Source of the DNA: a virus
Lineage: Duplodnaviria; Caudoviricetes
Strand: one strand, 5' to 3'
DNA: 49,705 bases
Virus record (IMG/VR): IMGVR_UViG_3300032225_000860
Span: 1-49,705 of that record
Shown here: positions 1,344-26,100 of the stretch, piece by piece
Numbering within the stretch: position 1 is the stretch's first letter
Layout: the number at the start of each line of letters is the position of its first letter
Made by a program: the position numbers and the translations under genes
Notes under the pieces: generated by a model
What the model saw: the letters and a program-made list of their open reading frames with translations, nothing else
Databases searched by the model: none
What the model was told of the DNA's origin: nothing

Positions 1344-2210
1344 TTACTCCCCCTTGTTTTGCTCAGGATTTGATAAGGGGGGTGTTTCACGTGAAACATC
1401 ATCTATCTCACATTGTGAAATATTACCCCCCTCCCCCTTGTGATTGGAATTTAGAGGTGGGTGAGTGTCTGGAATACTATGCATAGGGCTGGTACTAGAA
1501 AAAATAGAATTTTGGTGTAGTGGGGTAGTGGGGTCTGGCATCTGGCCAACGTCCAAGGCCTCCCCAGCCTGTTCCGGATCATCCTCTAGTGTATCCGGCT
1601 CGGTGTCTGGTGCTGCTAGCTCTGCCATTAACTCGGATGCTGTAACGTCTACGGCCTCTGCATCCTCTGCACCTTGAGACGATAGCGCCAGCCGAATACT
1701 GGCCAGTAACTTATCACGCACTGCACCGGAATCCGATACAGTGACCACCTCGCGCCGCTCAGTAAATAGAGCTACCTCCGTCATTTTGCCCAGTAGCTCG
1801 GCCGCCTTGATCTGCTGTGCCGGCGGCGTGTCTGGATTGATCGCGTGCTCCGTTAGTTTGTGGATGGCCAGAGCTCGTAAAGCGGCTGGGGTATTATGCT
1901 GAGCAGCCTCTAGCGCCAACTTAAACGCGTCAATCTGGGCTTGTATTGCCCCGTGTTTTGTTAGCTCTTGCCCTCTCTTGCTGGCCGTCTCTGGTTTAGC
2001 CTTAGATTTACGACCATTAGGGCGGGATTGTCTAAAGCTCTCCGCCTTAGTCTTACCTAGTGCCATCTGGTACGCAAAGGCGCGCTGGGACGCTGTTAGT
2101 TTAGTTTGGCCGCTACTGGCCGCGCCCAGAATAATAGTATCTATAGGCACGCTCTCCAGACCCTCTTTGATCTGCTTGCGGGATAACTTAGGCGGCTTAG
2201 ATGGCATCAT
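1344..2210 (-). CDS. terS: Probable terminase small subunit
   Basis: N-terminal HTH-like LTASQRAFAYQMALGKTKAESFRQS, then a helical oligomerisation-like segment (IKAAELLGKM) and a disordered acidic tail. Lies upstream of terL on the same strand. Confidence 0.7.
   Translation of the reverse strand: MMPSKPPKLSRKQIKEGLESVPIDTIILGAASSGQTKLTASQRAFAYQMALGKTKAESFRQSRPNGRKSKAKPETASKRGQELTKHGAIQAQIDAFKLALEAAQHNTPAALRALAIHKLTEHAINPDTPPAQQIKAAELLGKMTEVALFTERREVVTVSDSGAVRDKLLASIRLALSSQGAEDAEAVDVTASELMAELAAPDTEPDTLEDDPEQAGEALDVGQMPDPTTPLHQNSIFSSTSPMHSIPDTHPPLNSNHKGEGGNISQCEIDDVSRETPPLSNPEQNKGE
1383..1398. promoter_or_regulatory. parS: parS site (perfect consensus palindrome TGTTTCACGTGAAACA)
   Basis: 16/16 match to the widely conserved bacterial chromosomal parS consensus. 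Confidence 0.8.
1405..1421. promoter_or_regulatory. Candidate operator, copy 1 (ATCTCACATTGTGAAAT)
   Basis: Near-palindrome. Related copies at 2233-2249, 2354-2370 and 13623-13639. Confidence 0.5.
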
Positions 2211-2471: not shown

Positions 2472-4461
2472 ATGTACTTAGAAAAAACAATTAACGGCTA
2501 CGAGATAAGCCTAGACACGGACACGGACGGCGCAGGCGATAACAGCCCAGAGCGCATTACCGGATGCTGGATTAATAAGGGTGAGCTCTCCGGTAGTCTG
2601 GAGCTATTACGCCAGCAAGGCGGCCTAGAAAATGATAATGGGGACGTTGTACCTATGCCGGATGCGCTGATAGAAAAAATAGAGGGCTGGGCGCTGGCCA
2701 ATGGCTATTGAGTGATCCCTGCAAGCCCCTACGCGCTGGGGGTTTGCGGATTGTCACTTGATAATCAATTACTTTTTTTGGAGGTTTTATGCAATATATC
2801 AAGACTAGATATCTACCATCTACTAATAACTACGGCTCACGGATTAAGGCCACGGCCAGTAATGGCCAGATGCTTACTATTCCTTATGACTACGAATTAA
2901 ACGAAGAGCCGCTACACGCTAAAGCCGCGCTGACGCTGGCCGCGCGTCTGGGATGGTCTGCAGAGTATGCCGCCGGCGCTGGGGATGATGGTTATGTATT
3001 CGTTCCGGTTACTTCGGCCAATACCTACAGTCTGGAGGCCGCTTTATGATTGCAATTTTGCATAAACCTAGCGGTATTCTGTGCGAGCTAGAGCGCGATA
3101 AAACCGGCGCGCTGGTCTGCTTTATGGTTTTTAAAACAATGGCCGCGGCGCTCGCTTGTATGGCTGATAGGGTTTATTTTCCAGACGGCGCGGAAGATTT
3201 TGAGGCCGTTACATTACCGGCCGGTGTTCGCGCGCCATTTTTATTTGGAGAGGCGGCCTGATGCTCTGCTTACACTTTACGGCCGCCGAGTACGCCAAGG
3301 AAAATAAGATATCAGTATCCACGGCACGCGTGCGCCTCCAGCGGCTGGAATGGTCTGGAGAGGTGGATAGTCATATTACCTACGAAGATAACCCTAAAGC
3401 GCATTCACGGATTAATTACGGCAACATGCCGCCGGTGAGAGTGCGTTATTACTACTTTAAGGAAGATAAAAAATGATATTAGACCAGCCAGAGCAGATAG
3501 AGCATTTTCGTTTTTTAACCCTACGCCAAGGCCTTAAGCTAGAGATTAAGGGTTTAAGAATGAGCCGCGGCGTTAGTGCCTACGCCATCATTAAGCGCGA
3601 GCTAGGCCTTAAGGGCTCGCGTATATCGGTGTTTAATCAATTATCAGAGATGCTGGGCAAACCGGCTTATGAGTGACACCTCTAAGCCCTCTGCGGAGGG
3701 TTTAGGGATTATCACTTGATAGTCATTAACTTAGGGGGGTGTTATGAGATCAGTATCTGCAATTGCATATGACATTAAAAGAGCTTGGCCGAAGGTCAAC
3801 TACGCGGCCGCGCCGTATCTGGACGCTATGACACGGCTACAGTCCGCCAGTGATCCGTATTATCAGGATAGCGGCCGGAGCATTATTAATTACTTTTTAG
3901 CTAACGCGGCCGGCTTTAGAGGGGATGCCGCTAAGGCCTTAAAGGCCGAGCTAAAAGATCTAGTAAAAGGGGCTTAATTATGAGTACATGGTACGAAGAT
4001 CTAAAAAAATCAGATCCGGCGCTAGCCGCGGATTATGCTATTACCGGCCAGCAACCGGCTTGGGCGCTTAAAAACATGGTTAAGGCCTTATCGCTTATGC
4101 CAATACTTAATACGCCGGAGCAGACCGCCAGACTAACGGCCGCGCGTAGAATTTTACGGAGGATTAAATAATGGAAAATATTTGGACGTCTGGATGTGGC
4201 CGGCTGGAGCTAAACCTAAACGCGGATCAGGCCGCGCGCGGATATCATTCCGGCCAATGCGATGCCGATATCGCAGAGCTAAAACAAGTGCCAGAGATTA
4301 AGGCGCAATTATTGGCGCTGGATATCGGTCTGGTGCGTGAGTGCTTACGCGAGTACGGCGCGTGGGATAGCGCCGAGCTATCAAACCATAGCGATAACCT
4401 AGACCGGCTATTGTGGATAGCGTGCGCGGATATCGTAGATAGAGAGGTGGAAAATGACTAA
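2472..4461 (+). CDS. Early-region cluster of small hypothetical proteins (2472-2711, 2789-3049, 3046-3261, 3261-3476, 3473-3676, 3744-3977, 3980-4171, 4171-4461)
   Basis: Tightly packed co-directional ORFs with strong RBSs and overlapping stop/start codons. 3261-3476 looks HTH-like. Confidence 0.8.
2710..2767 (+). promoter_or_regulatory. Repeated structured intergenic element, copy 1 (RNase III site-like)
   Basis: GAGTGA/TCACTT lower stem, internal loop, GCAAGCCCC/GGGGTTTGC upper stem. Confidence 0.65.
3671..3724 (+). promoter_or_regulatory. Repeated structured intergenic element, copy 2 (RNase III site-like)
   Basis: GAGTGA/TCACTT lower stem, CTAAGCCCTC/GAGGGTTTAG upper stem. Confidence 0.65.
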
Positions 4462-5224: not shown

Positions 5225-7969
5225 TAGCTCACCCTTGGCCTATATGATGGTAATAGAGGCCATAAGCCAATTATCTGCGGAGGTGGCCGCGTCTAAGGTG
5301 GAAGATTACCCGCCGCGCGGTTTTGTAGAGCCTATGGCGTGGATTGAGACGGCGCAGAAAATCCAGCACATATTAAATAAGTGATAACTCTAAGCCTCTG
5401 GAGGGGGGCTTAGGGATTGTCATTTTTGGCGGTCATTAACTTAAGGGGAGCATATGAAGGTTATAGATAAGCATACCGGCAGAGAATTAAGCCATGCAGA
5501 GATTTTGGAGGAGGTTAATAGAGATCGCTCGGATGAGTGGAGCAATTACAACGGCCTAGATTTAAAAGAGACTCCAGCAGAGGTGCTGGAATGGATTGAT
5601 CCGCAATACTTTGACATTATTTTATAGGGGGATATATGCAATTTTATTTTAATAGTAAGCCAGTACCTAAAGGTCTGGCGCGTATCATTTTTATAGATGC
5701 AAACCCAACTATGGATCAGGCGGATGCAGAGGCGATTTTTAAGGGGGCGCAGACGTCCGGAGGTAGTAAGTTTAGGGCGCACCTACGCGATTATGGTTTG
5801 GAGGTGGTGCTATGAAGGAATTAAAAGAGATTATTTTGAATGTACTCGTGGCGGTGGCCAGCATGGCCGCGGTTTATTTTTTAATTGTTTTTGGTTTATC
5901 AATCTAGGGGGGCTTATGTTTTATGTATATCGCAATACTAAAGAGGATAGCGGAGTGATCGCTCAATTTGAGGATAAGGATCAGGCGCTGGAGATGATGG
6001 AGCGCTTGGCCACGCGTGAATTTCGCGAGAATGTTATCGGTTACGCGGTGCGTGATTATCAATTAAAAACATACGCGGAGATGGAGATATGAGAGATCTT
6101 ACCGATTTAGAAAAACTGCGGATGGTGAAGGATATCCTTGGCCGTATTGAATGTATTCGGCTGGATGTAGGGCTTAAATTAGAGGTGGCTGGGGATTTTG
6201 TAGATGAGGCAATTAATTTTATGGAGGAAGAGCATGAGAAAGAAAACCATTAATTCTCTAATGCCAATTGATAAGGCGGCAATTGGGTCTGATTTGAGGT
6301 CATTGATTGAATACTATACGGAGTTAACAGTAGAAGAGCATATGACCGGAAAGATCAATAAAGAGGCCGATCAGACTTGGAACAAAATACTAGTTTTGAT
6401 CCATAAATTAGTGGAGGAAAAAGATGCGTAACATAGTCCTATTTGGCAATATTGAATTTGGAGAATTTTTAAAGGATGGTGGCCGCGATCATTTTTCGTG
6501 TGCAATCGTCCATGAAATTCAATGCCAGCTGATGATGGAGGAAGAGGAGGCTGATGATTTTATGGTCAAGCATTCGTATGATGGCTATTTAATTCCAGCA
6601 TTATTTAAGGGTGAAGTTTATTTTTCGGGGAAAAATGATGGAAAAATGCTCAATTTGTAGTTGTAATTTTTCGCTGGACGAAGAGGGCGGTATCTCTGGT
6701 GAGTTTGGGGTTTTGCCTGTGGACTTTTGTCCTACTTGCTTTAGCTCAATGATGGATATGGCCGATAAGCTTGGCGGCGATGATATGACGTTAGAGTGGG
6801 GTAACAGTAGGGTGGCCACTAAGTATATGTATGAGCGCATCCATGACATTTTGGACGAGGTTGATGGTGATATATATAACAAGTTGTCCAAACTGCTTGA
6901 TGAGCTGGCGCATAATTATGAAGTTGATACTGGAGAGAAGATAGGAGAGAGTGATGAGTAAATTAAAAGAGTACGAAAAGATCGTAATGCTTACAGATGA
7001 GCTGGATGATGGCTCAATTGTGGTCAATTTTGACGTTACAGACGAATATAACTGCACAACTAGAACCGGTGGTTACGTTAAGGCAACGCAAGACAATGAC
7101 GATAAATGTTTTTATGTAACTATCTGTGATGAGCAAGGCAATCTCTTATCTGAGACAGTTGTGCCATTTGTTTTTATGAATCATGAGGATGACGAAGATG
7201 AAAGTTAAAAAAATTAACAGCAAAATGGTGGAGCATTGGATTGGCAGCGATCATCAAAACACCGCTGAATATCTTCGGCTATTGACAGAGATAATTAACG
7301 GCGAGTATACGGTTGATGAATTTAGGGACGATGTATTAGATTTATGGGGAGAAGATGATGAAAGTAATGATTGAGGTAAATATTCCGGTCAACGGCACAA
7401 AGGCCGAGGCTGAGATGGCTGTTAAGCGGTATTTTGATCCTGATTGGATGGCAGAGTGGTGGTGCGTTGATGATGTCATTGAGCAGGCTTGCGAAGACAT
7501 TAGTACAGAAGAGGCACGCTGGGTGCTGCAAATGATGGAAAAACGCCACGATTGTAACCATGGCCATACTTGGGATTCTATGGATCATTGGATTGATCAT
7601 GTTATTGGACAGAGGGGTAAAAAATGAAGCGCTTTAAACTTTACGATAGCAAAAAAGACTATTTAGGTGAATTTGATACTTTTGTAGAGGCTTGGCAAGA
7701 GGGTACGGATTACAAGGCCACTACCGGCAACACCTACTTTATTCAAGATACTGGCCGGCATTATGCACAAGTGATAGAAAAACTCAGAGGAGAAGAAAAT
7801 GCTAAGACAATATGATGTTACGTTCCACCTACGCCGCACAGTAACCATTACTGTAGACTGCCACAATGAAGATGACGCCGAGGATTTTGCTTATGATGAT
7901 CTAAAGCTACAGGAAGATGAGGAGGTTATTGAGGTTGAGGTAACCGCTGGCGATCCTAGCGGTGAATAG
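5196..7969 (+). CDS. Second early cluster of small, mostly acidic hypothetical proteins (5196-5384, 5454-5627, 5636-5815, 5812-5907 membrane peptide, 5916-6092, 6089-6253, 6234-6431, 6424-6660, ~6635-6961 Zn-finger-like, 6951-7208, ~7198-7374, 7355-7627, 7624-7815, 7799-7969)
   Basis: Continuous overlapping ORF chain with G-rich RBSs. Several ORFs under 60 aa were translated by hand. The tracked 5697-6092 ORF most likely starts at 5916. Confidence 0.7.
5379..5434 (+). promoter_or_regulatory. Repeated structured intergenic element, copy 3 (RNase III site-like)
   Basis: AAGTGA/TCATTT lower stem, CTAAGCCTCT/GGGGGCTTAG upper stem. Confidence 0.6.
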
Positions 7970-8780
7970 TATAATTGGGCATCAATACTTTTTTAAGGCT
8001 TTGGCTGGCGGTAAAGATGCCCACTCTCATATGATAATCGTTGAAATCCTCCCCAGTTGTTCCGCTGAGCCAGTACGGATGGCCTGTTTCAATCGCAACG
8101 GATTCACCGATATGACTGGGGTCATTGTCAGCAACAATGATCCCCTTCCCGACTGTCCGCGCTACTTCCTTGAGATTTCCTGCGCTGAAGCAGATGTAGA
8201 TACAATATCTCAGGTTGCTGCTTTTCATAGCGAGGCGAATGGAATTCCCCGTGGCAAACCCCTCGCAGAAGATGGGAATCCCTTTTGCGTCCATGGTAAA
8301 ACTTGCGCCCTTAGTCGTTTGTCCATACAGGAATTTTTTATCCCCTTGCTCATTGATGAGCTGGCATCCAATCAGTCTTTCTCCGATCCGCATCGGTATA
8401 ACTAACTTACGTTCTCCGTTGTCGTTCCATACCGGCCACTTCTCTTCCGGAAAACCTTTTCTCTCCATATACGGATGGGTTTCCATTTGTGTCTGGTGCA
8501 TAATCCAGCCGGCTTTGGCAGCTGCTTTGTCCGCCAGCTCTTTGCGCTGATTGTTACTTTCTTTTATGCGCGTTATATGAATCGGATTAGGGCTTTCTGA
8601 TTTCCAAACGGCCGGTTTCTCCATGGTTGCCCAGTTTTGTACCGCGCCCCTATTCCCGTCAAAAATATATGAACCGTTTTTCTTATGTGGATGATCGGTT
8701 GTTGGGACTCTAACCCATTTATCGTACATCAGCGAATTGATAATCAGGCCATGAGCTTTAGCAAAATCTTGGAAGTGCAT
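7956..8780 (-). CDS. Toprim-domain primase-like protein
   Basis: HPYMERKG, LVIPM...CQLI...GDKKFL, CEGFATG, IIVADND, DFND motifs. Start at ATG 8780 follows AAGGA. Confidence 0.88.
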   Translation of the reverse strand: MHFQDFAKAHGLIINSLMYDKWVRVPTTDHPHKKNGSYIFDGNRGAVQNWATMEKPAVWKSESPNPIHITRIKESNNQRKELADKAAAKAGWIMHQTQMETHPYMERKGFPEEKWPVWNDNGERKLVIPMRIGERLIGCQLINEQGDKKFLYGQTTKGASFTMDAKGIPIFCEGFATGNSIRLAMKSSNLRYCIYICFSAGNLKEVARTVGKGIIVADNDPSHIGESVAIETGHPYWLSGTTGEDFNDYHMRVGIFTASQSLKKVLMPNYTIHR

Positions 8781-8781
8781 A

Positions 8782-8946
8782 CTAATCCTTGAAAAACAAT
8801 TTAATGTCAATGTTACGGCGCTCTAGCTCTCTCTTAATCTTTTTTATGGCTTGCTTTTCAATTTGATTGACTGTAACCCTATGCATTCCCAGCTTTAGGG
8901 CTACTTCTTGCTGTGTCATGTTGATCAGGCTTTTATCAATTTGCAT
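8782..8946 (-). CDS. Stand-alone sigma70 region-4-like HTH protein (54 aa; not in the ORF track)
   Basis: MTQQEVALKLGMHRVTVNQIEKQAIKKIK resembles the sigma region 4.2 consensus. Confidence 0.7.
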   Translation of the reverse strand: MQIDKSLINMTQQEVALKLGMHRVTVNQIEKQAIKKIKRELERRNIDIKLFFKD

Positions 8947-9440
8947 CATTCATTCCTCATAAATTTTAATAAACTGGTTTTACAAATGTAAAACTCTTGT
9001 GTCATATCCTCGTATCGCTTATCTTTATATGTCTTTACAAACCATTGTGCGTGGGTATCTCCTTTCAAGGTGGCAATATGGGTCTTGTCTTTGCTTAAAT
9101 AGATATACAAGTAAGGCTTAGGCTCTGCGTTATCAAAACTATGCCGCGCGCAAACCATAAAATGCTCTCCAAACCTCCAATCCTCCGCGCAAGTAAATTG
9201 TGCGCCTAAATGCTTAACTTCTACCCGCTTTTCATCTTGACCGCGTATATCGCAGATGTATATATCACCTTCGTCTACAAAATTCATGCGCTCTTTGTAA
9301 CTGGGCGTCACCTTGGTAGGGGGAATGGTTACCACTTTCCCCAGAGAGGATAGCCACTGCGCCATCTCCCACACCGCTTGCTGGCTGGCGTTTAAATGCG
9401 TTACGAGCCTTCGGCAGTCGTTTTCTTTTGGGCTATCCAT
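8946..9440 (-). CDS. Putative PD-(D/E)xK nuclease-fold protein
   Basis: DEGDIYI...RVEVKH motif. Confidence 0.5.
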   Translation of the reverse strand: MDSPKENDCRRLVTHLNASQQAVWEMAQWLSSLGKVVTIPPTKVTPSYKERMNFVDEGDIYICDIRGQDEKRVEVKHLGAQFTCAEDWRFGEHFMVCARHSFDNAEPKPYLYIYLSKDKTHIATLKGDTHAQWFVKTYKDKRYEDMTQEFYICKTSLLKFMRNE

Positions 9441-9595
9441 TTTCTACATTTCTTTTGCACGTTAATTGGGTCTGCGGTACTTACTTCGCTGCATTGATAG
9501 ACTATCGGCCTTAATGCGTGCTGCACGGCCATATCTACGCCATTAAAGAAAGCAATCATAAATAAAGTAAAGAATACAAATTTAAAAAATATCAT
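9401..9595 (-). CDS. Small membrane-anchored hypothetical protein
   Basis: Hydrophobic N-terminus and two Cys. Overlaps both neighbours. Confidence 0.55.
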   Translation of the reverse strand: MIFFKFVFFTLFMIAFFNGVDMAVQHALRPIVYQCSEVSTADPINVQKKCRKWIAQKKTTAEGS

Positions 9596-11076
9596 GCTGC
9601 CAACTTCTCTTTCCTATTAGACCATGCAATATTGCGAGACTTTATCCAGCCCATGGTAGACAGTGATGGTGGACGAGTCTTATCTTCTAACCCTCTTGGC
9701 CAGACTTTAAACTTTTCTTTGTATTTGTGGCTAGCCCAGTATTCGTTATAGCCACGTTCTTTGGCCACATACAGTAACTCAGAGTAAAATAGTTGCTTGT
9801 CATCCTTCTTAACCTTCACTGTTTCTATGGCTAACTCTTCCATGGTGCCGGCGACTGCAGCAATCTCGTTACGCCTCTGGCGAATATGACCACAAGACGG
9901 GCAGCAATCAGTGTTCTTTGGTAATAAGAAAGAGCACGCTGGGCATTTAGATTCTTTCTTTAGCCGCTCGGTAGGCTCTTTTTTGGCCTTCTCTCCATCG
10001 TTGTCTAATACTTGTACGCCGTTTTGAAACACCTCTTCCCAGTCATCTCTGAACCGCAAGAAATTACCAGAATGATCTAGCCACAGAGCAAAATACTTAC
10101 TAGGATGGGGGCGCATGACTCTCCCCAGCTGCTGGATGTGGGAAGAAAGTGACTTGGAAAAAGGTCTAGCGGAAACTCCAATGGCGACATCAGGAACATC
10201 AAAACCCCTAGTAAGAATATCGGTAGCAATAAGGCCATGTATCTGTGTATCCGGCCGCGAAAAATCTGCAATAGCTTGTCGTTTATATTCACTATCGTCC
10301 TTATAAGAAATTGATACAAAATTGTATCCGTGCTCGGCAAACTGTTTTACTAAGTCTGCGCCGTGAGCTACGCCTGCACAAAACACAATCGTCTTCTTAG
10401 GCATACCAAAAACTTCGTGGGTCTTCTTAATCCACTCTTGAACTATATCGCCGGTTAACTTCATACCGCGCTCTGTTACCGCGTCTTGTGACCACTCGCC
10501 AGCAACCTTCTTAACGCCAGTCATGTCAATCTCTTTGGCAATAAATACTTTAAGAGGTGTTAACCACTTATCGTTTACCAGCGACTCTGTTGTTGATCCA
10601 CAGACTACGTTGGTATAAAGACTGGCCAGACCCTTGGTAAAGGGTGTCGCGGTCAATCCAATTACTTTAATGTGTGGATTATTTCTAATAAACTCTGAGG
10701 TCTGCTTGCGTGCTATGTGGCATTCATCCACAATCAATAGATCCATCTGCGGGAAGTCTTTCATCTTCTCCAAAGTCTGCGCAGAGCAAACTTGCAGCCG
10801 GTGCGTTCTATTGTGCTTGTAGTGCTTGGCCTGCAACACTCCGTGCGGAATGTTGTACTTATCTAATCTGTCGCTAGTCTGGTCAACCAAGATAATACGG
10901 TCTAAAACCATGGCCGCTTTTTTGTACTTCTCATTGGTTGCCTTCATCAAGGCAATGGCTACTTCAGTCTTGCCAAATCCTGTCGGTGCGTATAGTAACT
11001 GTGATCTGTGTCCATCCCTAAATCCCTCTCTCAACTTCTCAATAACGTGCTGCTGGTGTTCGCGCAAAACTAACAT
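9592..11076 (-). CDS. Superfamily 2 DNA helicase (RadD/UvsW-like) with C-terminal zinc finger
   Basis: APTGFGKT, DECH, GLTATP, GFDVPD, QQLGRVMR and CPAC...CPSC motifs. Confidence 0.95.
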   Translation of the reverse strand: MLVLREHQQHVIEKLREGFRDGHRSQLLYAPTGFGKTEVAIALMKATNEKYKKAAMVLDRIILVDQTSDRLDKYNIPHGVLQAKHYKHNRTHRLQVCSAQTLEKMKDFPQMDLLIVDECHIARKQTSEFIRNNPHIKVIGLTATPFTKGLASLYTNVVCGSTTESLVNDKWLTPLKVFIAKEIDMTGVKKVAGEWSQDAVTERGMKLTGDIVQEWIKKTHEVFGMPKKTIVFCAGVAHGADLVKQFAEHGYNFVSISYKDDSEYKRQAIADFSRPDTQIHGLIATDILTRGFDVPDVAIGVSARPFSKSLSSHIQQLGRVMRPHPSKYFALWLDHSGNFLRFRDDWEEVFQNGVQVLDNDGEKAKKEPTERLKKESKCPACSFLLPKNTDCCPSCGHIRQRRNEIAAVAGTMEELAIETVKVKKDDKQLFYSELLYVAKERGYNEYWASHKYKEKFKVWPRGLEDKTRPPSLSTMGWIKSRNIAWSNRKEKLAA

Positions 11077-11114: not shown

Positions 11115-11396
11115 TCAAAGTTTTTTTAACTTTTTAGCAAATGAATTTAATGATGCAGTCAATTCGGCATTGCGGTTCTGAAACATATCCCGACTATACC
11201 GCAACGATTTGTTATCAATCTTTAAAAGTTCGTTCTCTTTTCGTAATGCTTTTAATTCCTCCTGTATCCAATCTCTTTCTATATCGCTAGCATCCCAAAG
11301 CTGCGCTGCAATGATCTCCATCAGACCTTTATTTTCCTCGGAAAGCTGATTTATTACATCAGTAAGTTCCCTAATGCGGTCGTTTTCATCAATCAT
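11115..11396 (-). CDS. Coiled-coil hypothetical protein, first gene of the helicase/primase operon
   Basis: Heptad-rich ORF with AGGA RBS. Confidence 0.7.
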   Translation of the reverse strand: MIDENDRIRELTDVINQLSEENKGLMEIIAAQLWDASDIERDWIQEELKALRKENELLKIDNKSLRYSRDMFQNRNAELTASLNSFAKKLKKL

Positions 11397-11420
11397 TTTT
11401 ATCCTAGCAGTGGATCTAAA

Positions 11421-11530: not shown

Positions 11531-12493
11531 ATGCAGGGACTTTTTTTAACGGACGATGAATTTATCACATCGTGGAAAACAATTGGAAGTCCTACGGGAT
11601 TTGCACATAAACATGGTATGGATGTAAGGTCGGTATATAACCGGCGCAGATCCATTGAAAGCCGCCTAGGCATTAAATTGCCTACAGTAGATGACAAGCG
11701 CTATTCTCCGCTACGAAGGCTAGAGCAAGTAGTTGGCAACGCAAGGCGCGGTAGAGATATGGAAAAAGGTAGGGTGGTGGTGTTCTCCGATGCCCACTTC
11801 TGGCCAGATGATTACACTACCGCGTATAAAGCCCTGTTAATGATTATCAAAGAATTCCGCCCACAAGTCGTAGTGGCAAATGGAGATATCTTTGACGGCT
11901 CTCAGAATAGCCGGCATCCGAGAATAGGCTGGACACATAGCCCTACAGTCAAAGAAGAGCTAGAGGCCTGCCAAGAATTTATGGCCAATATTGAAAAGGC
12001 ATCCATTGGCGCCGAACTGGTCTGGACTATGGGTAACCATGATGCCCGCTTTGAGACTTTCCTAGCAGCTCAAGTTCCCCAGTATGAGGGCGTATCAGGG
12101 TTTACCCTCAAAGACCATTTTCCTATGTGGAAACCATGTTGGTCTTACTGGGTGAATCAGGACACCTGTATTAAACACCGCTGGAAGGGTGGATTTGGAG
12201 CCGGACGGGCAAATGCCCTTAACGCCGGCGTAAACATGATTACAGGCCATACGCACAATTTGGCCGTCCAGCCCATCACCGATTACAACGGAACGCGCTA
12301 TGGCGTCCAAACAGGCACTTTATCAAATCCTGATGGCGAACAATACGTACATTACACGGAAGACGGATGTAAGGACTGGCGCGCCGGATTCGCCCTGCTG
12401 TCTTTTGAACGTGGTAGACTAATGCTTCCAGAGCTAATTCAGGTATGCGGCGAAGATGAGTTTGAATTTCGCGGCTGCATAAACTATGTATGA
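11531..12493 (+). CDS. Calcineurin-like metallophosphoesterase with N-terminal HTH-like extension
   Basis: SDAH, GDIFD, GNHD, KHR and GHTH motifs in canonical order. Confidence 0.9.
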   Translation: MQGLFLTDDEFITSWKTIGSPTGFAHKHGMDVRSVYNRRRSIESRLGIKLPTVDDKRYSPLRRLEQVVGNARRGRDMEKGRVVVFSDAHFWPDDYTTAYKALLMIIKEFRPQVVVANGDIFDGSQNSRHPRIGWTHSPTVKEELEACQEFMANIEKASIGAELVWTMGNHDARFETFLAAQVPQYEGVSGFTLKDHFPMWKPCWSYWVNQDTCIKHRWKGGFGAGRANALNAGVNMITGHTHNLAVQPITDYNGTRYGVQTGTLSNPDGEQYVHYTEDGCKDWRAGFALLSFERGRLMLPELIQVCGEDEFEFRGCINYV

Positions 12494-12837
12494 AACTTTC
12501 CCCCTCAATCCTGCGTAATCTATACAGTGCAATCTACTGTATGAAGCCATTCCAGCGGTGGCCAATGCCGCTGCCGGAGCAGATTAAGTTTGTGGTGGAC
12601 TCAGACCCAGAGACAATGGGTACCTATCTATATGATGACGGCGAGCAGTATGAGCACGTTATTACTATTTCAAATAAGAAGTGTGGCCATCTGTCAACAG
12701 TGATCCGCGTCCTAATCCATGAATGCGTCCATATGAGCCGTTGGAAGACGCCAAAATGGAGCCATCATGATGCTGAATTCCGCCGGCGCACCAAAGTTAT
12801 ATCAGACGAACTAGGCTTTGATCCCCTAGAATTGTAA
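12490..12837 (+). CDS. SprT-like zincin metalloprotease domain protein
   Basis: VLIHECVH...HHDAEF (HExxH plus a distal H followed by xxxF). Confidence 0.75.
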   Translation: MKLSPSILRNLYSAIYCMKPFQRWPMPLPEQIKFVVDSDPETMGTYLYDDGEQYEHVITISNKKCGHLSTVIRVLIHECVHMSRWKTPKWSHHDAEFRRRTKVISDELGFDPLEL

Positions 12838-12906
12838 ACTTTGAGAAACATTTTTTAAAGTTTGATGCGTAAATTGATGCATATGTGCATCAAAAATAGC
12901 ATAGAA

Positions 12907-12931
12907 AAAAGGTTGCAAAAAGCAACCTTTT
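12907..12931. terminator. Hairpin between convergent genes, probably a bidirectional terminator
   Basis: AAAAGGTTGC-AAAAA-GCAACCTTTT. Confidence 0.6.
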
Positions 12932-12951
12932 GACACCTTTTGACACCTTTT
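12925..12951. repeat. Short tandem repeat (ACCTTTTGAC)x2.7
   Basis: Read directly from the sequence. Confidence 0.8.
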
Positions 12952-13087
12952 ACTTCTTCTTGCTATACAAGTCTTTCCAAGTATCCATTACGCAGTTGTA
13001 CCAGAACTCATAAGACTCTCTGGACTGCTTGGCTACAATTTCAAACTTCTCTAATGCATCTTTATATTGCTTTTCAAAATCAAACAT
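12950..13087 (-). CDS. 45-aa amphipathic helical protein, possibly phasin-like (not in the ORF track)
   Basis: MFDFEKQYKDALEKFEIVAKQSRESYEFWYNCVMDTWKDLYSKKK. GAAAGGG RBS, own extended -10, upstream TTGCA-N-TGCAA palindrome. Confidence 0.6.
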   Translation of the reverse strand: MFDFEKQYKDALEKFEIVAKQSRESYEFWYNCVMDTWKDLYSKKK

Positions 13088-13142: not shown

Positions 13143-13446
13143 ATAGTTCCCCCAAGGGTGACAGCCCCCACATCTGGAATGCTGTTACCTGACCCAGTGT
13201 ATACAGTGTGTATACGCCCAGTCCTACCGGAGTTAATGGTCATTCGTTGGAAGACTTGTCTCACCCATGTATCTTCCCACTTGTGTAGTCGCCATTTAAC
13301 GCTACGAGGCACGCAATCAGGTGTAAACCGGCCTATGTATTATCCACGCAGCCCATGTAGGCTCTTAGTGACGTCTGGAGTACGGCTGTTGGATGTATAG
13401 GGCAAACAAATTAATTGTTACCGTTTCCCAAATTTAAATCCTAGCA
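13143..13446 (-). ncRNA. Candidate large structured non-coding RNA (unassigned)
   Basis: Many nested helices with G-U pairs favouring the minus strand, a possible pseudoknot, an upstream TTGCAC-N17-TATCCT promoter (13480-13452), and no convincing ORF. Confidence 0.55.
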
Positions 13447-13483
13447 AAATCAGGATACACCAAAATAAAAAAAGGTGCAACAG

Positions 13484-13522
13484 AAAAGAGAGAACCCTCA
13501 GAGGGTGAGCTCTGAGGGTTCT
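13484..13522 (-). terminator. Rho-independent terminator
   Basis: Perfect 13-bp stem AGAACCCTCAGAG/CTCTGAGGGTTCT followed by CTCTTTTC on the minus strand. Confidence 0.8.
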
Positions 13523-13613
13523 GGGCGCGGGGAGCGCTGAGGAGGAGGTGAAACCTACCTTGATAATCTGCTAGGATTTACGCAAGGGAATAAAGCTAAG
13601 GCGGGGCTTAACT
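13484..13613 (-). ncRNA. Candidate ~130-nt small RNA
   Basis: Bounded by a near-consensus promoter and a 13-bp intrinsic terminator. No ORF. C-rich anti-SD-like segment. Confidence 0.65.
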
Positions 13614-13619
13614 GTTCGC

Positions 13620-13649
13620 AGTATACCACAATGTGAAAATTGATGTCAA
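13620..13649 (-). promoter_or_regulatory. Strong sigma70-type promoter with an operator-like site in the spacer
   Basis: TTGACA-N18-TATACT with TGn extension. TTTTCACATTGTGGTAT overlaps the spacer and -10. Confidence 0.75.
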
Positions 13650-13653
13650 TAGC

Positions 13654-13950
13654 CTATTTATGTACGTCTAACCTACCGGTTTCAAATAGCCAGCCTATGG
13701 TTTTACGATGGGCTTCCTCCCAAAGATCTCTACGATCGTCTCTGGAGAGATTTTTTCCTTGGTCAAGCTCCATATGGCACTTATAACAAAGAGCTGCTAT
13801 ACGGTAATCATGGGCTTTAATAGACCGGCCTTTGCCGTCCCGTAGCTGATTAGAATGAGCCGCGACTATGGTTCCGTTTTCAATCTCGCAATGCTGGCAC
13901 GGGCTCTGGCGGACAATCTCTAGGAGTTTTTTATTCCGGTAGATCAACAA
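13654..13950 (-). CDS. DUF1364/YbcO-like His-Me finger protein
   Basis: CQHC...VAAHSN...GKGRSIKAHD...LCYKCH. Confidence 0.75.
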   Translation of the reverse strand: MLIYRNKKLLEIVRQSPCQHCEIENGTIVAAHSNQLRDGKGRSIKAHDYRIAALCYKCHMELDQGKNLSRDDRRDLWEEAHRKTIGWLFETGRLDVHK

Positions 13951-19441: not shown

Positions 19442-19662
19442 GAGAACAATAACGTCCAAAAAGTAATTAATAAAAATGCAGCCATACCGACCATAATGGC
19501 CAGCCGTTCTTGGCGCACCTGCCGAGCGTATTCTGGGGTCGCTAATAAAGCCTCTTGAATAAAAATCATGTCTGGATCATCAATCGGTGCAACCTTGCCG
19601 TATTCCCCATAACGGCAGCCAATCTTGATTCCAGTGCTAGTTGTATATGGAACTGTTTTCAT
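19438..19662 (-). CDS. Hypothetical protein with C-terminal TM helix, first gene of the leftward operon
   Basis: AGGAGGAGG RBS before ATG 19662. Confidence 0.7.
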   Translation of the reverse strand: MKTVPYTTSTGIKIGCRYGEYGKVAPIDDPDMIFIQEALLATPEYARQVRQERLAIMVGMAAFLLITFWTLLFS

Positions 19663-19741
19663 ATATCCTCCTCCTGTGTGTAAGCATATCACAAGTCATT
19701 AGGTTGTACCCACTATTAGTCACCTACCGAGATAAATATTT

Positions 19742-20106: not shown

Positions 20107-20135
20107 GGGGTGGCCTAAAAAACCACCCCTTTTTT
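20107..20135 (+). terminator. Rho-independent terminator after rusA
   Basis: GGGGTGG/CCACCCC stem followed by T6. Confidence 0.7.
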
Positions 20136-23100
20136 ATAAGCCGGCTTCTTTGCGGATCTGGATTACATCTCCCAAGATTTCATTCTTAGTTCTTTGAAGC
20201 TCTTGGACTTCCTTACGGCGATCATCTTTAGAGAAATTAGGATCTCTTACTTCGCTGACTCTACGGATTTCTTTGTTGATTTCTTTGAGCGCGGATTCAA
20301 TGCCGGTGACATACTCATAAGCAGCAATCTCTTTCTCATGCTTAGTGAAATAAGCATCAGCTTCTTTATCTTTCTCACGCTCAATTAACTTCATGAAAGT
20401 CTTGTGCTTAGGTTCAACTTCAGACTTAAGGTCATAGAACAGGGATTCTGGGCCGCGGCCTACGTCCCTATCCATCAGTCCACCCCATAACGGATTGTCT
20501 TTTTGCTCCGCGGTTGGACGATCACCAGAGAGCATATTAGAACCCCACATGACTACAGCGCCATTGGTTCCAAAGATGCCTCTGACAAGGTGGTCCATTT
20601 GAATTGGGTTTAATACACCGCCAGCAACTGCGCTAAGAACCTTGCCTAACTCAGAAGTGGAGGCATTGTACTGTTCTGCCGCGTCCAAACCTTCTAATCC
20701 TTTTGGAGTAATTGCACCGCCGGTAAAGAAGTTGCGGTTAAGGCCGATCTCTACAGCGGGTTTGATACCAGTAGGAATAGGGTTAGGGCCAAGCAATGAG
20801 TCTAATGCAGCTTCAGCTAAAGCTTTGCGTAGTCTGGTGCCGTCTACTTCGTTCTTGGTACCTTTTTTGATGACGTAGTTGGTAATCAATTCTGGCATTG
20901 CTTTGAAAAAGTACGCCGCGGAAGTATTCATTGGCAATAGGATGTTGTCATCCACGCCAATATACTTGGTTAAATTTTTAGGAATAACGAAGTTACGGGC
21001 TTTCTTTTGATCATCCATCTTCTCGTAATCATCGTTACCGCCCATAATCCATGTGTAAAGAGTTGTCCACATGGTTAACATTGCAGCTACTTTGAGCATG
21101 GAACCAAATGCAGCTGCGCGGTTCTTGCCTTTTAAACCACCGCCGGCCAGAGCTTCAGCCAGTACATCTAACTGCTGGGCATAGGCGTTCATGAATGATA
21201 CGGAACGGGTAATAGCAACAACCATCTTAGCGTTACCGTGTTTCTTAAAGTCAATGATGTTATTGGATCTTATTAGCGCCAAAGTCTCATCACCGGTTTC
21301 AGCCAGCACGCGCTTGTAGGTTGCAATACGCTGAGCCATATCAGAAGCATCGCCAATCTTATCTAAGATATTGGTAAATTGATCTAACTTGTTTTGCTCT
21401 ATTAAACCAATCTGTTGCTTGTATTGCTGCTCTGGTGAGCGAGTATAAGATTGAAATCCACCGATACCGTAGGCCTTAAGATGGCGGACGATTGGATCTT
21501 CTGAATTGAGAGCATTTAAGAATGATTTAAATGTATCCGCGTAAAGGATGGCAGAGTTCTTAGCACCTAAACCGGAAACCATGGCCGCGGTTGGAGCATC
21601 CATAAACAGCTGGCGTAATTGGAACTGAGGCCAAGTAGTAATACCACGGCGCAACAGGTTAGCCATGACCGCAAATATCTCAACTGCCGGCATATTGATG
21701 TTTTCCATACCAATAATGGCCTCAGCAATTAACGGATCTGGAATGTTAACAATCACTCTTCTGCCGTTGACTATGATATTTAAGCGCACGCCGTTATCAT
21801 CTCTACCTTCTTCTCTGTAAAGTTTTAACTTGCCTTTCTTTTTACCTTCGGTGTAACGTTCTGCGTACCGCGCGGCAATCATATTGGCAGCATGGTTACG
21901 CATAGAGTTACGGCCAAGAATGGCAGTGTTATGCAGCATATTGTCTAGGATGTCATCAATCTCACCTAAGTCCTCTTGATACAATTGGATAGCCTCGTTA
22001 AATTGATCAAGATCAATCTCGCCATCAATGTATTCTCTAGCTGCCTTATTGACAGCTGCGTTGCGTTTAAAAACTTTTTCTTTGGCTACGTTAGTTAGGC
22101 TCTTGGTTGATCCACGGATAGGTGCGCTGTGGACGTCTTCCATCTCATCTTGGATGCGCTGCCATGGAACGTAGTCTTCAATCTCACGTAAAGACTTAGC
22201 GCGCTTATCGCTAATAATGCCAGAGAACTCCATGTTGTCAAGGTTATTTTTATTGACCGCTTGCCAGTTATCCATCATATTTCTAAGCTCTGGATTGTCA
22301 TCCTCCAGCGCGGAATAGATGTCAATGGACTCATCACTTAACTTGACCTTGCTTCTGGCAACAACAATGTTATAGAAGTCATTCTTGGCCTTTTCTACTT
22401 CATCCAAAGCGTCATAATACGCATCGGTTCCAAACTCTAATTTCTCGGCTTTCTCTTTAGCCTTCTCTACAATACCTTCTTGCTTTTGGAAAGCGTCCAG
22501 AATACTTCTAGAGCGCTTAGCCTCAAAGTAATCTTGAATCATGTTATTGGCCTCTTGGGCGCCAACGCGCTCAATCAAGTCGTGTTTGGCCAGCATCACA
22601 TTGGCAAGGGATTCTTTAGCATCTTCGGCGCGGAACATTTGTGATTCAGTATCAAATATCAACTTACCGCGCATAATGACCTGAGACATAATCTCGCCGG
22701 AGTGTAAAGCGTTGGTTAACGCTACAGTAGCAATTGCCTTTTCTTGGCCGTCTTTGACCTTGCCGTTAAATTTCTTAACCTCGGCAACTTCTAATCCGCG
22801 GCCATACCAGACACCCTTAATACGTGCGTAAGTTATCGCGCGGTCTAATTTGCTGGTCATCTTATTGACAGCCAGCATTGGGCTTTCTTTTACTGCTTTA
22901 GCTGCTTCTCTAGCCGCGGCATAAGATCCCAGCAGCATATCCTTGACAGACTTAGAAGTCTTAAGTTTAAAGTCTTCACGGCCATCAGCTTCACGCTGGG
23001 CTAAATATGCTTCTCTAAAAGACTCTAGTTCGTCTTCATCTTCTGGCGAAACTGACTCAGGCTGTCGCTTTTTTCCAATAGCTTGATAGCTTGGTCTAAG

Positions 23101-26100
23101 CTCGCTAGGTATTCCGGATTCTCCCCGTCCCTGCTTCCGTTGTCCAGAAACGTCTTCAGAAGTATCTTCGCCTCTTGCTTGGTTGCTGCTATCTTTGAAA
23201 CGCTGTCCAATAGCCCTGTTAGATTCATTTGATCCCTCTTTATTTAGGAAGTCAATAATATCCTTGTTTTCTTTGACGGTCAAGATAAAGTCTTTTTTGA
23301 GCTGATTGATGTCAAAAGAAGTAGATGACTCCAGTTTAATTAAAATGCGCTGCATTTCCGCCGGGAAATCAGCTCCGTGGTTACGAACTTTGTGGTGTGC
23401 CAACTCATGAATCATGGTTCCAAACATACCCAAGGCGGCTTCCTCTGGGGTATCAATGTATTCTGGGAACGCTGGGTTAATATACATCCCTTTAAATGGC
23501 AGAACAATACTAACACCACGATATTCTTTGTCAAAAGAAACGCCAATAGCCTCTTTAGCCAGATCTTTGTAATCAATTCCACGTTTATCTGCTGGCATAT
23601 TTTTTGACACTGCATCGCGCAAAGCCATAAAAACATCGCCAATATCAAACATAAAGCTATCAAAACGATCACCAAATTTATCCCTAGCCAATTTAGTAAT
23701 TGGGGTAAACTCTTCTTCTGTTTTTTGTCGTGCTAAATTTTCTTTTCTTGAAATAAGCCTATCTTGTTCTTTCTGAAGCTCTCTTAATTCACCTCTTAAA
23801 ACAACAAGCTTATTCGTATCTTTTTCTTCTTCAATTTTTTCCCGTAAAGCATAACGTGCTTCATAATTATCCTCAAGAAGCTTTGTAACTTCTTTTATTT
23901 CCGAAGCTAATGTATCAGTAGAAATTTCCAAATTGTCATGAATCATGACTTTATTTGGATCAATCTTATCTTGTGGAATTTTTAACGCATCAACATCAAT
24001 GGACGCTTTTTTCAAATCCTCTGGAGTAAGTAATGGAACTTCTTTTCCATTAACTATTAGTCTGCCATCCTTGACCTCAACCTTAGATCCTTCTTTAATT
24101 GTTTCTTTTTGCTCAACTTCTTCAGCTTCTGGAACCAATGATTCTTGGTCTGACTTAATAATGTCTTTGCCAGATCTACTAAGATACTGGACTGTCCCAA
24201 AGTTTTGAACTGTAGTGTTATAGTCTTTTAAACGATAGTGCAGCACTAAGTAATTTTTAATTAACTTAAGGTCTGATTCTGCTTCTTTGGTAAATCCTTG
24301 GCGATTTAATTGGAAAGGGTAACCTTCTTCATCAGGTTTAACTTTAGATACAATATCCAAATAGAAACGATGAGGTATGTTATCACTATACATATTCATA
24401 GGATCTATTTTTAACTTTTCTCCAAATTGCCATAAACCATTAGACAAAATTTTCATGTTTTCGCCGTACTTACTTGCTTGGCCATTGGAAACATAAATAC
24501 GAGCTGTACCCCAATCAAATTTAGCATCTACAAAAGTAGTATATTCATTAGCGTCAAACTTGTTTCCCATTCCATAGATTGAGCTACCATTAAAAGTAAC
24601 TTCAATGTTGGCAAACAATGGACTATCTTGTAAAACTTCAAAAGCATATTCATTGTCTGCGAAACTAACTTCTTTCATTTCACCAGTAGATTGATCTTTA
24701 AATTCTTTAGGGACGGTTACTCGTACAAAAGTGCCATGCCCTTTAGGAAACATATTGGCCCAATCTGGCATTTCTTCTTTTGTCTGAATGTTAATATCGG
24801 GAGCTTGAGATGGATCCTCCAATGATGCCATTAACTGATCGCCCTTTGCATACATAGAGCTAATCTTGTCATCTTTCATTGTGATAACTTCTACATCTTC
24901 ATTGCCAAACAGGAATAACATTTTTGCAATACCAAATCCACCTGATCCAAACTCTGTATCTTTTTTGGTTCCAGCAATAGTCAAGAATACATTAGCTAAA
25001 GTGTCTGGAGACATACCGCTGCCGTCATCAGTCATGGCTACGGTGCGTTGATCTTTATCAACTACAATATCTATCTTTCCGGAATCTGTTTTCTTTTGCT
25101 CAAGCATTGTTTTGATTGCATCAAAAGAATTTTGTAACATCTCTTTAACCGAAACATTGGTGATGTCGCTCATACTTCCATAAAGCTGTGGTCCTAAAAG
25201 TTTAGCAATCCGGGCTACGTTTGCCCCCGGCTTAGACTTAATAGTTTCATACATTGGCTCTTCGCCGCCAGACTCTTTTTGCTCCGCAATGTAGCGGTCA
25301 AGAGCTTTACGCTGAGTAGGATTAAGCGGAACCTTGGTAATATCTAGTCCGGTTAAGTTAGCAATAGCTACAGCTAAATCAGGTTCATTTTCGTTTAAGA
25401 AATTCTTAACCGCGGATTCGGCTTTAAATCCAACAGCAGCAGACTCCCAATCTCTACGAGGTGTACCGGCCTGCTTAGGCTTAATAGCACTAGCAAGTTT
25501 TTTCTTAAAGTCTTCCAAGCGCTCTTTGTTATTCATTACCTTAAAGGAACCATCACCCTCTAATTTAATGGTGACATAACGCTCTGCCTCTGGAACTTTG
25601 GCATCGTTGTATTTTTTTTGGGTTGCAAACTTAGTGCGCTTGATGGCTTGATCTACTTGATTTTCAGCAGCCTTTTTCATCTTGCCATAGTCAACATTTT
25701 CACCAGCCTTGGCTACTGCTTTTTCAATACCTTCAACAGTAACTGGTTTTTCTTCTTTGCTTTCAACGCCAGATGGTTTAGTAATTTCCGATGTTAATCC
25801 ACGGCCTTGTTGACGCAAAATTGTTGAGTAATTAATTGTCGTTCTTGAATCATTGGCAGGATTGTATACACCAAAAGCTTTTTCACCAGCACCTGTAATT
25901 GTGTATGGAGTATTTTTGCTTGTATATTCAATATCTTGATTGAATGTAACAGTATCACCAATATTGGCTTGTAAAACATCTTGAAGTTTTTGTTTGTAAG
26001 ATTCTAACTTTTCTTTTTTACTTGGAGCTTTTGGCTTTTGTTCTGTTCTTATTTCTATAGGTTTGGGTGCTTCTTCCTTAGCGGCTTCTCTTTGTTTGGC

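Follow-up and report, generated by a model that had tools for sequence, protein, structure and literature searches.

A candidate two-module antisense RNA next to a structured non-coding RNA in a family of tailed phages

The DNA considered here, hereafter called the window, is the whole 49.7 kb stretch (49,705 nucleotides) of the tailed-phage record IMGVR_UViG_3300032225_000860, whose completeness is put at 78% by the collection's own estimate. An early cluster of small genes occupies the plus strand from 2.5 to 8.0 kb, and the gene content otherwise includes a replication operon (ParB-like fragment, helicase, primase), a recombination operon (exonuclease, Erf), RusA, and podovirus-like virion genes. 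The following genes and sites are relevant to the discussion:

1383-1398, plus strand: palindrome that matches the parS consensus perfectly, located within the 3' end of a terminase-small-subunit-like gene
7956-11076, minus strand: helicase, two small genes, HTH gene, and primase (PHROGs and Pfam)
11115-11396, minus strand: first gene of the replication operon, 93 amino acids, corresponding to the C-terminal part of the family's ParB-like protein (tblastn to relatives)
11394-11413, minus strand: ribosome-binding leader of the replication operon, with a 10-nt seed complement at 11410-11401
13654-13950, minus strand: HNH-family gene directly upstream of the sRNA cassette, a syntenic marker
19660-19675, minus strand: ribosome-binding site and start codon of the first recombination-operon gene (exonuclease, with Erf next)

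The palindrome was recognized by what we take to be the parS consensus. In relatives, the full-length form of the first replication protein matches phrog_1033 (ParB-like), and in the window's clade this gene is found without the ParB domain. The same clade carries a metallophosphoesterase and SprT-like gene pair (11531-12837, plus strand) as a reversed insert between the structured RNA described below and the replication operon. The closest isolate helicases are at most 43% identical to that of the window, and the DNA of the window cassette gave no relevant match in collections of named phages and plasmids. No relative that might indicate a host was returned by a cassette pattern scan of 185,579 prokaryote genomes, and a helicase search there gave one 30% match only.

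Two RNAs are predicted in tandem on the minus strand after the HNH gene, with the following features:

13620-13649, minus strand: P1, predicted sigma-70-type promoter of the sRNA, TTGACA-18-TATACT with TG, 11 of 12 consensus matches
13624-13638, minus strand: operator-like repeat overlapping P1, a putative protein site, present over P1 in 5 of 53 cassettes
13484-13613, minus strand: predicted sRNA of ~130 nt, with its +1 placed from the promoter
13594-13613, minus strand: 5' hairpin of the sRNA with a C-rich loop (predicted fold)
13581-13592, minus strand: variable specificity segment, predicted to pair with the adjacent leader at 13429-13421 (duplex -28 kcal/mol with the seed included)
13568-13580, minus strand: seed, whose core CUAGCAG is near-invariant in the family (mean probability unpaired 0.63)
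13540-13551, minus strand: C-rich segment resembling an anti-Shine-Dalgarno sequence, with an exact 9-nt match to 19675-19667
13484-13522, minus strand: intrinsic terminator with a 13-bp hairpin (13522-13491)
13452-13480, minus strand: P2, predicted promoter of the adjacent RNA, TTGCAC-17-TATCCT, scoring under the promoter-scan threshold
13385-13446, minus strand: leader hairpin of the adjacent RNA, whose 5' strand (13446-13421) is the predicted sRNA target and otherwise pairs with the leader's own 3' strand
13143-13384, minus strand: core A, a conserved non-coding structured RNA of ~240 nt (covariation)

A preliminary description of this locus had proposed the promoter with its TGn extension, the ~130-nt transcript, and the 13-bp terminator, all of which were found at these minus-strand positions. 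P1 is the top of 15 promoter-like sites between 10 and 21 kb, the fold of the 130-nt sRNA has z = -5.4 with the terminator counted in, and the terminator tail is modest, with four U residues after CUCU. The sRNA had also been placed under the operator-like site. This repeat does overlap P1 and occurs four times in the window (13624-13638, 1406-1420, 2234-2248, and 2355-2369; none of 100 shuffles reached four), with one copy next to parS, one at either end of the divergent early promoter region, and one covering the sRNA promoter, but its position over P1 is clade-specific, all five cassettes that have it being those of the window's clade. Searches of Rfam with the sRNA and with core A returned no family. 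In two sequencing runs with small word shares, which were chosen with this stretch, contigs of relatives cover core A and not the sRNA, and contigs of this kind cannot show strand, ends, or level, so that they weigh neither for nor against the sRNA and say nothing about habitat.

Three exact complements to the sRNA are present in the window as previously described, comprising 12 nt at 13446-13435 in the adjacent leader, 10 nt at 11410-11401, and 9 nt at 19675-19667. The adjacent match is beyond chance, as none of 2000 shuffles gives 12 nt in the adjacent 40 nt. The distant matches are not beyond chance in the window alone: a match of at least 10 nt in one of 75 start regions arose in 387 of 2000 shuffles, one of at least 9 nt in 1115 of 2000, and 10 plus 9 nt together in 182 of 2000, with some of the start codons set approximately (that of the recombination gene is 3 nt off). 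Two further 12-nt complements (2578, plus strand; 2131, minus strand) match the terminator region and look like chance. Because the distant matches within this genome do not exceed chance, the case rests on comparison across relatives.

Loci for this comparison were gathered by means of the upstream HNH protein and by sequence patterns, and a loose pattern scan returned mostly false matches. Scanning the window and about 346 loci (a count taken from the range of identifiers, many of which overlap) yielded 97 raw and 54 distinct sRNA-leader pairs, or 53 once L230 was rejected, whose duplex reaches -13.1 and in which the family layout is absent. L123 and a second site in L031 were dropped as false positives. 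The layout of the cassette is constant, with P1, the 5' hairpin, the variable segment, the seed CUAGCAG, more hairpins, the terminator, the promoter-like P2, and an RNA starting with (C)UGCUAG. A P1-like site is seen in all 53 cassettes by a loose pattern, and the layout of P2 is the same in 52 of 53, partly by construction of the search. The sRNA family alignment holds 37 of the 53 versions, and across these 37 sequences the terminator stem covaries, with two-sided changes in seven of nine consensus pairs.

The 53 cassettes were chosen for the presence of seed and target, and thus only the variable parts were tested for cognate pairing; since related loci overlap, the cassettes are also not independent. 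When the seed is left out, 34 of the 53 sRNAs pair better with their cognate leader than with any leader from another cluster. Among 24 cluster representatives treated in the same way, cognate pairs average -15.75 kcal/mol versus -7.96 +/- 0.6, and none of 20,000 permutations was as good. A second set of 21 loci anchored on core A, with seeds included, gave -26.2 versus -19.2 (0 of 20,000), the cognate leader being best in 11 of 21; here the sRNA bodies of L367 and L387 had been entered shortened, and both were recomputed separately. The duplex between sRNA and adjacent leader averages -30.9 over the family, and its complementarity runs on for 15-25 nt, with bulges, into lineage-specific sequence. 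In a fixed register, G-U pairs exceed A-C apposition modestly (21 versus 8), and the given strand pairs better in 41 of 53. Compensatory change is therefore found in both locus sets, as expected from the earlier proposal that the sRNA pairs with the adjacent structured RNA.

The pairing is not uniform across the family. The window is itself a weak member, with -8.8 for the variable segment, eight of 50 non-cognate leaders as good, and -28 for the whole duplex. The cognate leader is not the best in 19 of 53 cassettes, and in five of the loci (L059, L258, L269, L298, and L099) it is no better than average. Mismatched sRNA-leader pairs are present in L298, L363, L368, L265, L401, and L387, of which the last five look like mismatched recombinants or chimeric assemblies. 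Given the mismatches in these five loci, cognate pairing may be dispensable.

The claim that the adjacent RNA is structured is upheld by comparative covariation, though its single-sequence fold is ordinary (z = 0.27) and the structure is visible by comparison only. Core A shows two-sided changes in 24 of 44 pairs (26 sequences), and 95% of cells are paired (0 of 500 shuffles; 30-38% in slid controls). Many loop residues are invariant, and no intrinsic terminator was seen in the core. Judging from sequence comparison, core A is probably pseudoknotted. A covariance model of its first 165 positions detects remote homologs in six loci, and the loop pair AAUG/CAUU is replaced by GCGA/UCGC and ACGA/UCGU in seven remote homologs. 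Within the core A alignment this helix is near-invariant, with one sequence misaligned there, so that the support comes from the remote homologs. A leader peptide was rejected, as 15 of 53 leaders are without a start codon and lengths vary. A type I toxin-antitoxin system was rejected as well, given that leader reading frames are absent in those 15 and variable elsewhere and that core A carries indels and stops.

At least four unrelated cores are interchangeable behind one leader. Core A does not match the orphan Rfam motif Betaproteobacteria-1 (RF02932, function unknown), whereas core B of relatives (L014 and L009) does so above the gathering threshold. Three more non-coding cores of 250-350 nt lie just after the leader, namely C (L105, L284, L300, and L317), D (L081, L082, L097, and L107), and E (L031), and none matched Rfam when one locus of each type was scanned. 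Betaproteobacteria-1 RNAs are also found directly after the primase gene of Acidovorax phage AP1 (L356, 11856-11979) and in MW202545 (L361, 9887-10004), where the RNA has its own promoter and a leader resembling those of CI and C4. In the portions of PMC11597636 consulted nothing is said on lysogeny of AP1, and the literature compared, with the supplement of PMC5737381 outside the comparison, held no link between Betaproteobacteria-1 and an antisense-controlled leader.

Cores A and B also occur behind a different leader, both in this family and in unrelated phages, in which a 5' segment is complementary to the loop of a long hairpin ending in a U tract. These CI/C4-like leaders lie upstream of core A in L233, L234, L235, L243, L246, L248, L256, L275, L277, L037, and L372. 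Rfam did not recognize them in the loci scanned, and they are a candidate new antisense family. Because both cores are found behind this leader too, the core is under predicted antisense control in two designs. L275 additionally holds a weak match to the type I hammerhead (9177-9227, minus strand; 30.5 bits, cut-off 34).

The second predicted class of targets consists of distant genes that carry a short ribosome-binding tag. The seed complement UGCUAGGA lies before a start codon in 51 of 53 cassette loci, with 148 sites in 812 kb, compared with 6 sites in 747 kb of 64 HNH loci in which no cassette was detected at that stage, a control set that turned out to contain some divergent cassettes, to which most of the six tag-bearing loci belong. 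Of the 204 copies, 148 are sense-oriented and lie 4-12 nt before a start codon with the Shine-Dalgarno sequence included, and 56 lie elsewhere. TGCT is the top prefix of start-proximal AGGA (128 of 1130, with 30 for the next), and elsewhere it precedes 54 of 4476. In relatives the tag stands at the start of the recombination operon, the ParB-like/helicase/primase operon, and a number of early genes, and in the window it is kept by the helicase-operon leader only. This leader, which the preliminary description had named as a pairing partner, is the best of the 75 window start regions for the seed (-17.4), and its seed complement is kept in all 10 clade and sister-clade loci that reach it.

Changes in the seed can be followed across several lineages, and the compensatory seed and target changes that had been suggested as a check were found at distant tags as well as in the adjacent leader. 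L041 and L053 share the altered seed CUAGCG, and their tags have become CGCUAGGAG at 8 of 8 and 6 of 7 sites; the one remaining site has a U, for which wobble pairing is possible. Under the seed CUAGCA, by contrast, U occupies that tag position in 129 of 139 sites. This change is one evolutionary event, and there are four uncompensated C sites, three of them CGCUAGGA sites without a seed change (L016, L297, and L300) and one in L037. The seeds of L001 and L281 carry two C-to-U substitutions that track the altered adjacent leader. Toward the helicase leader, which has not changed, these positions still form G-U pairs, and additional 3' pairing has arisen that suits mainly this leader (-21.7 and -25.3). 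In L365 and L367, a tag-less adjacent leader is paired by a separate segment of the sRNA (-28.0 and -32.9), and the seed is kept with 10 bp to the helicase leader (-18.9). The recomputed sRNA of L387 does not pair with its adjacent leader. In all five of these last loci the seed is retained or re-extended toward the helicase leader, in agreement with the proposed pairing. The seed sRNA also persists in L275, L037, and L048, where the core has another leader type. In the AUGAGAG clade the seed, adjacent leader, and replication-operon start have all switched, with weak pairing at the operon start (-11 to -13), and L264 is an exception. In L029 a seed-like segment is altered, and the 20 kb considered of its 33.5 kb contain no tags to match.

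These patterns bear on two readings in which the distant tags would not be RNA targets. The adjacent RNA might be the sole true target, with the gene-start tag a preferred strong ribosome-binding or promoter-proximal sequence that was once copied into the adjacent leader. Pairing with the adjacent leader is much the stronger (mean -30.9, versus -17 to -19 for the 10-bp tag duplex), the window has one tag only, and the tag contains AGGAG, an ordinary Shine-Dalgarno core. This explanation nevertheless appears improbable, given that the seed is kept where the adjacent leader is tag-less (L365, L367, L387, L275, L037, and L048) and that in L041 and L053 its change was matched by 14 of 15 distant tags. 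Alternatively, the tag might be a double-stranded DNA operator for a phage protein, so that the copy in the sRNA gene would be an inverted operator and all copies would shift with the specificity of the protein; the preliminary description had itself raised a DNA-binding site as the alternative for TGCTAGGAT. A protein site would covary genome-wide too, the excess of G-U over A-C is modest, and the replication operon holds an HTH gene. The sense orientation of the 148 copies before start codons, the two L001 and L281 changes that are tolerated by G-U pairing and would not be shared by a DNA site, and the extension of complementarity with bulges into lineage-specific sequence all weaken this reading, which is very improbable.

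The C-rich segment fared differently from the seed. It had been put forward as a gene-specific seed for the recombination operon, but the recombination gene ranks only second of 75 start regions, many early genes pair as well, and the exact motif is confined to the window's clade; the accompanying caution that the match may be generic was justified. The tag for the main seed stands at the recombination operon of most relatives, and the window's clade is without it. Sites of the GAGG or GGGG type precede 15 of 19 early versus 1 of 19 late genes in the window, and a preference for early leaders is shared by three C-rich parts of the sRNA (p = 0.0001 to 0.007, post hoc). In the window's clade, C-rich loops that act on G-rich sites may have taken over from the tag, and strong early ribosome-binding sites would equally explain the preference. 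The ar14 sRNAs with C-rich anti-Shine-Dalgarno loops (RF02344) share the segment CCUCCUCC, with a weak match of 23.7 bits versus a 58.8-bit cut-off, but ar14 has repeated C-rich loops, whereas the window sRNA has one motif only, and that one is confined to a clade.

Since the sequence of the sRNA changes in step with the adjacent RNA and with the tags, it likely acts as an RNA repressor. The reading that we favor, with good confidence, is that a two-module antisense sRNA represses tagged mRNAs and the adjacent RNA by base pairing, in place of a protein repressor. We infer transcription, the direction of regulation, the mechanism, the function of the core, and the lifestyle from the sequence patterns. 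The sRNA would be made from P1 and would pair with nascent or free 5' ends. In the first module, the seed CUAGCAG would cover the tag (A)CUGCUAGGAG, which contains the Shine-Dalgarno sequence, and would block translation. In the second, the variable segment would give phage-specific duplexes of up to ~30 bp with the emerging 5' strand, ahead of leader-hairpin folding. If the mechanism resembles that of P4 CI and P1 C4, capture of the 5' strand of the P2 RNA might then stop or destabilize the core through termination or cleavage by a nuclease. The earlier view of one trans-acting sRNA that silences replication, recombination, and the structured RNA is retained for the adjacent RNA and the helicase leader and loses its anti-Shine-Dalgarno seed for recombination.

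The sRNA likely works like P1 C4 and P4 CI without being a member of those families. All are phage antisense RNAs that lie on the strand of the target and near it, and antisense and target covary between phages. In the heteroimmunity of P1 and P7, the specificity of the antisense RNA changes with the target, according to the part of PMC12197685 that was considered, and the part of PMC4825925 that was considered attributes silencing of the P4 replication genes to CI, which pairs with seqA and seqC and causes termination. The CI/C4-like leader that is predicted to control the cores elsewhere resembles this seqA/CI arrangement (PMC4825925, as far as consulted). Several differences limit the analogy that had been drawn with C4 and CI. 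These RNAs are processed from the target transcript, with sites on both sides, whereas the window sRNA has its own predicted promoter and terminator and a second promoter-like site serves the target. The C4-type models of Rfam gave no match in the window at the gathering threshold or at E values up to 10, and none in sets of 13 and 5 related loci. The target of C4 is icd-ant, but here it is an adjacent non-coding RNA with no conserved leader reading frame, and the replication-operon leader is a predicted second target. Unlike C4 and CI, this sRNA family also has a second, invariant seed that matches a tag on up to ~8 distant genes.

The comparison with ColE1 RNA I and RNA II, also made previously, holds as an analogy only. 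ColE1 RNA I and its counterparts in the MRB replicons of Vibrionaceae (pB1067) are short terminated RNAs directed at the 5' portion of a longer non-coding RNA; recognition is cognate, and compatible variants exist (PMC3035462, in the part consulted). Those RNAs are cis-antisense, encoded on the opposite strand and fully complementary to RNA II, whereas here the two RNAs are in tandem on the same strand and form a partial duplex of 12-30 bp. Core A as a homologue of RNA II was rejected, since nhmmer and the covariance model find nothing in ColE1, and the likeness of the 3' ends is weak, with 8 of 662 windows scoring as high.

The lifestyle of these phages can be approached from the genes they lack. 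Tyrosine integrases were found in none of 32 related records (9 of them at least 90% complete), and S24-type (CI-type) repressors and serine recombinases in none of 15 records (11 at least 90% complete). Along with the perfect site at 1383-1398, parS-like sites are present in 8 of 32 relatives, with no matches to a control pattern, and parS is absent from 24 of 32 records, including six of nine near-complete relatives. The parS site noted earlier is present in the window, and the absence of an integrase extends to the relatives. Lack of integrase and repressor, together with parS, would suit dormancy or copy-number control, and a low-copy, non-integrated carrier state is judged to have somewhat less than an even chance of being the outcome. 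A lytic early-gene timer fits nearly as well. The phage might be purely lytic, with an sRNA from a strong host-type promoter that shuts early, recombination, and replication genes as infection proceeds, serving as a timer and possibly for superinfection exclusion, with no dormancy. Absence of an integrase and a CI-type repressor would be expected of a lytic phage too, the tags sit on the early cluster, and the records without parS and the empty scan of 185,579 prokaryote genomes agree with this reading. Against it are the perfect parS here and the parS-like sites of the eight relatives, the ParB-like first gene in the replication operon, and the hypervariable specificity segment, as in immunity and incompatibility RNAs (PMC12197685 and PMC3035462, in the parts consulted), such that a purely lytic timer is plausible at about one chance in three. 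A more far-reaching scheme seems unlikely, in which phages without integrase and CI would persist as plasmids under one sRNA, the seed shutting down all lytic early genes by way of their common tag and so providing cross-immunity, and the hypervariable arm setting copy number and incompatibility through a new class of Rep-independent primer RNAs, with core A and Betaproteobacteria-1 interchangeable.

Explanations for the core itself are similarly divided. A replication primer or origin RNA is the guess that we rank first, although it falls short of an even chance. The missing homology to ColE1 and the lack of any relevant plasmid match for cores A and B count against this guess, as does the occurrence of core A in phages with their own O-like initiators. 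GC skew tracks gene direction, with no origin indicated at the core, and the gene just upstream of core A in L053, initiator-like in appearance, matched no PHROG and was rejected. Processive antiterminators such as put and EAR cause read-through of downstream terminators in cis. If the core were such an element, the sRNA would prevent its synthesis, so that downstream genes would not be reached. In annotated contexts the core is co-directional with downstream genes, lying ahead of terminase genes (L238 and L277), ahead of an initiator gene (L278), or after the primase (Acidovorax phage AP1), and some cores run straight into a gene with no space for a promoter. The window core, however, has a terminator and an inverted cassette behind it, and a separate promoter-like site serves the replication operon. 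In L271, L275, and MW202545 such sites come immediately after the core. These features leave antitermination rather unlikely. Slightly more doubtful is a trans-acting effector (an antirepressor-like sRNA decoy, an anti-defence RNA, or an RNA toxin) in the place that icd-ant occupies behind C4. The predicted promoter, the invariant loop residues, the probable pseudoknot, the interchangeable unrelated cores, and a 5' end predicted to bind the sRNA more strongly than the tags do would all suit an effector, but mismatched sRNA-leader pairs speak against the toxin form and burial of the target strand in the finished leader hairpin against the decoy form.

To our knowledge, each known phage immunity RNA controls one operon. 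Under the two-module reading, a single RNA appears to carry both a seed that serves a whole regulon and a phage-specific arm, in phages that yielded no protein repressor, and the support for this combination is multi-site compensatory evolution. No description of the cassette was found in the literature consulted, which included six supplementary files of PMC10690425, without the four motifs, and did not extend to the PMC5737381 supplement; either could list these RNAs. The orphan motif Betaproteobacteria-1 and the new 240-nt structured RNA can now be placed within a defined, predicted antisense switch, so that small cloned cassettes would allow their function to be tested, and the many natural cognate pairs would supply orthogonal RNA regulators.

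Several minor observations concern the remainder of the window. A 45-aa gene (12950-13087, minus strand) after core A has its own promoter-like site and is kept in the clade; a Pfam search with it gave no family, and a bidirectional terminator-like hairpin lies beside it at 12905-12931. A 2945-aa protein (20134-28971, minus strand) with HATPase and LPD38 domains is a polyvalent-type virion protein. A repeated module, consisting of a GC-rich hairpin, a second small hairpin, and a shared leader, precedes three early genes on the plus strand (2690-2790, 3669-3747, and 5377-5457; repeat families D2, D4, and D8).
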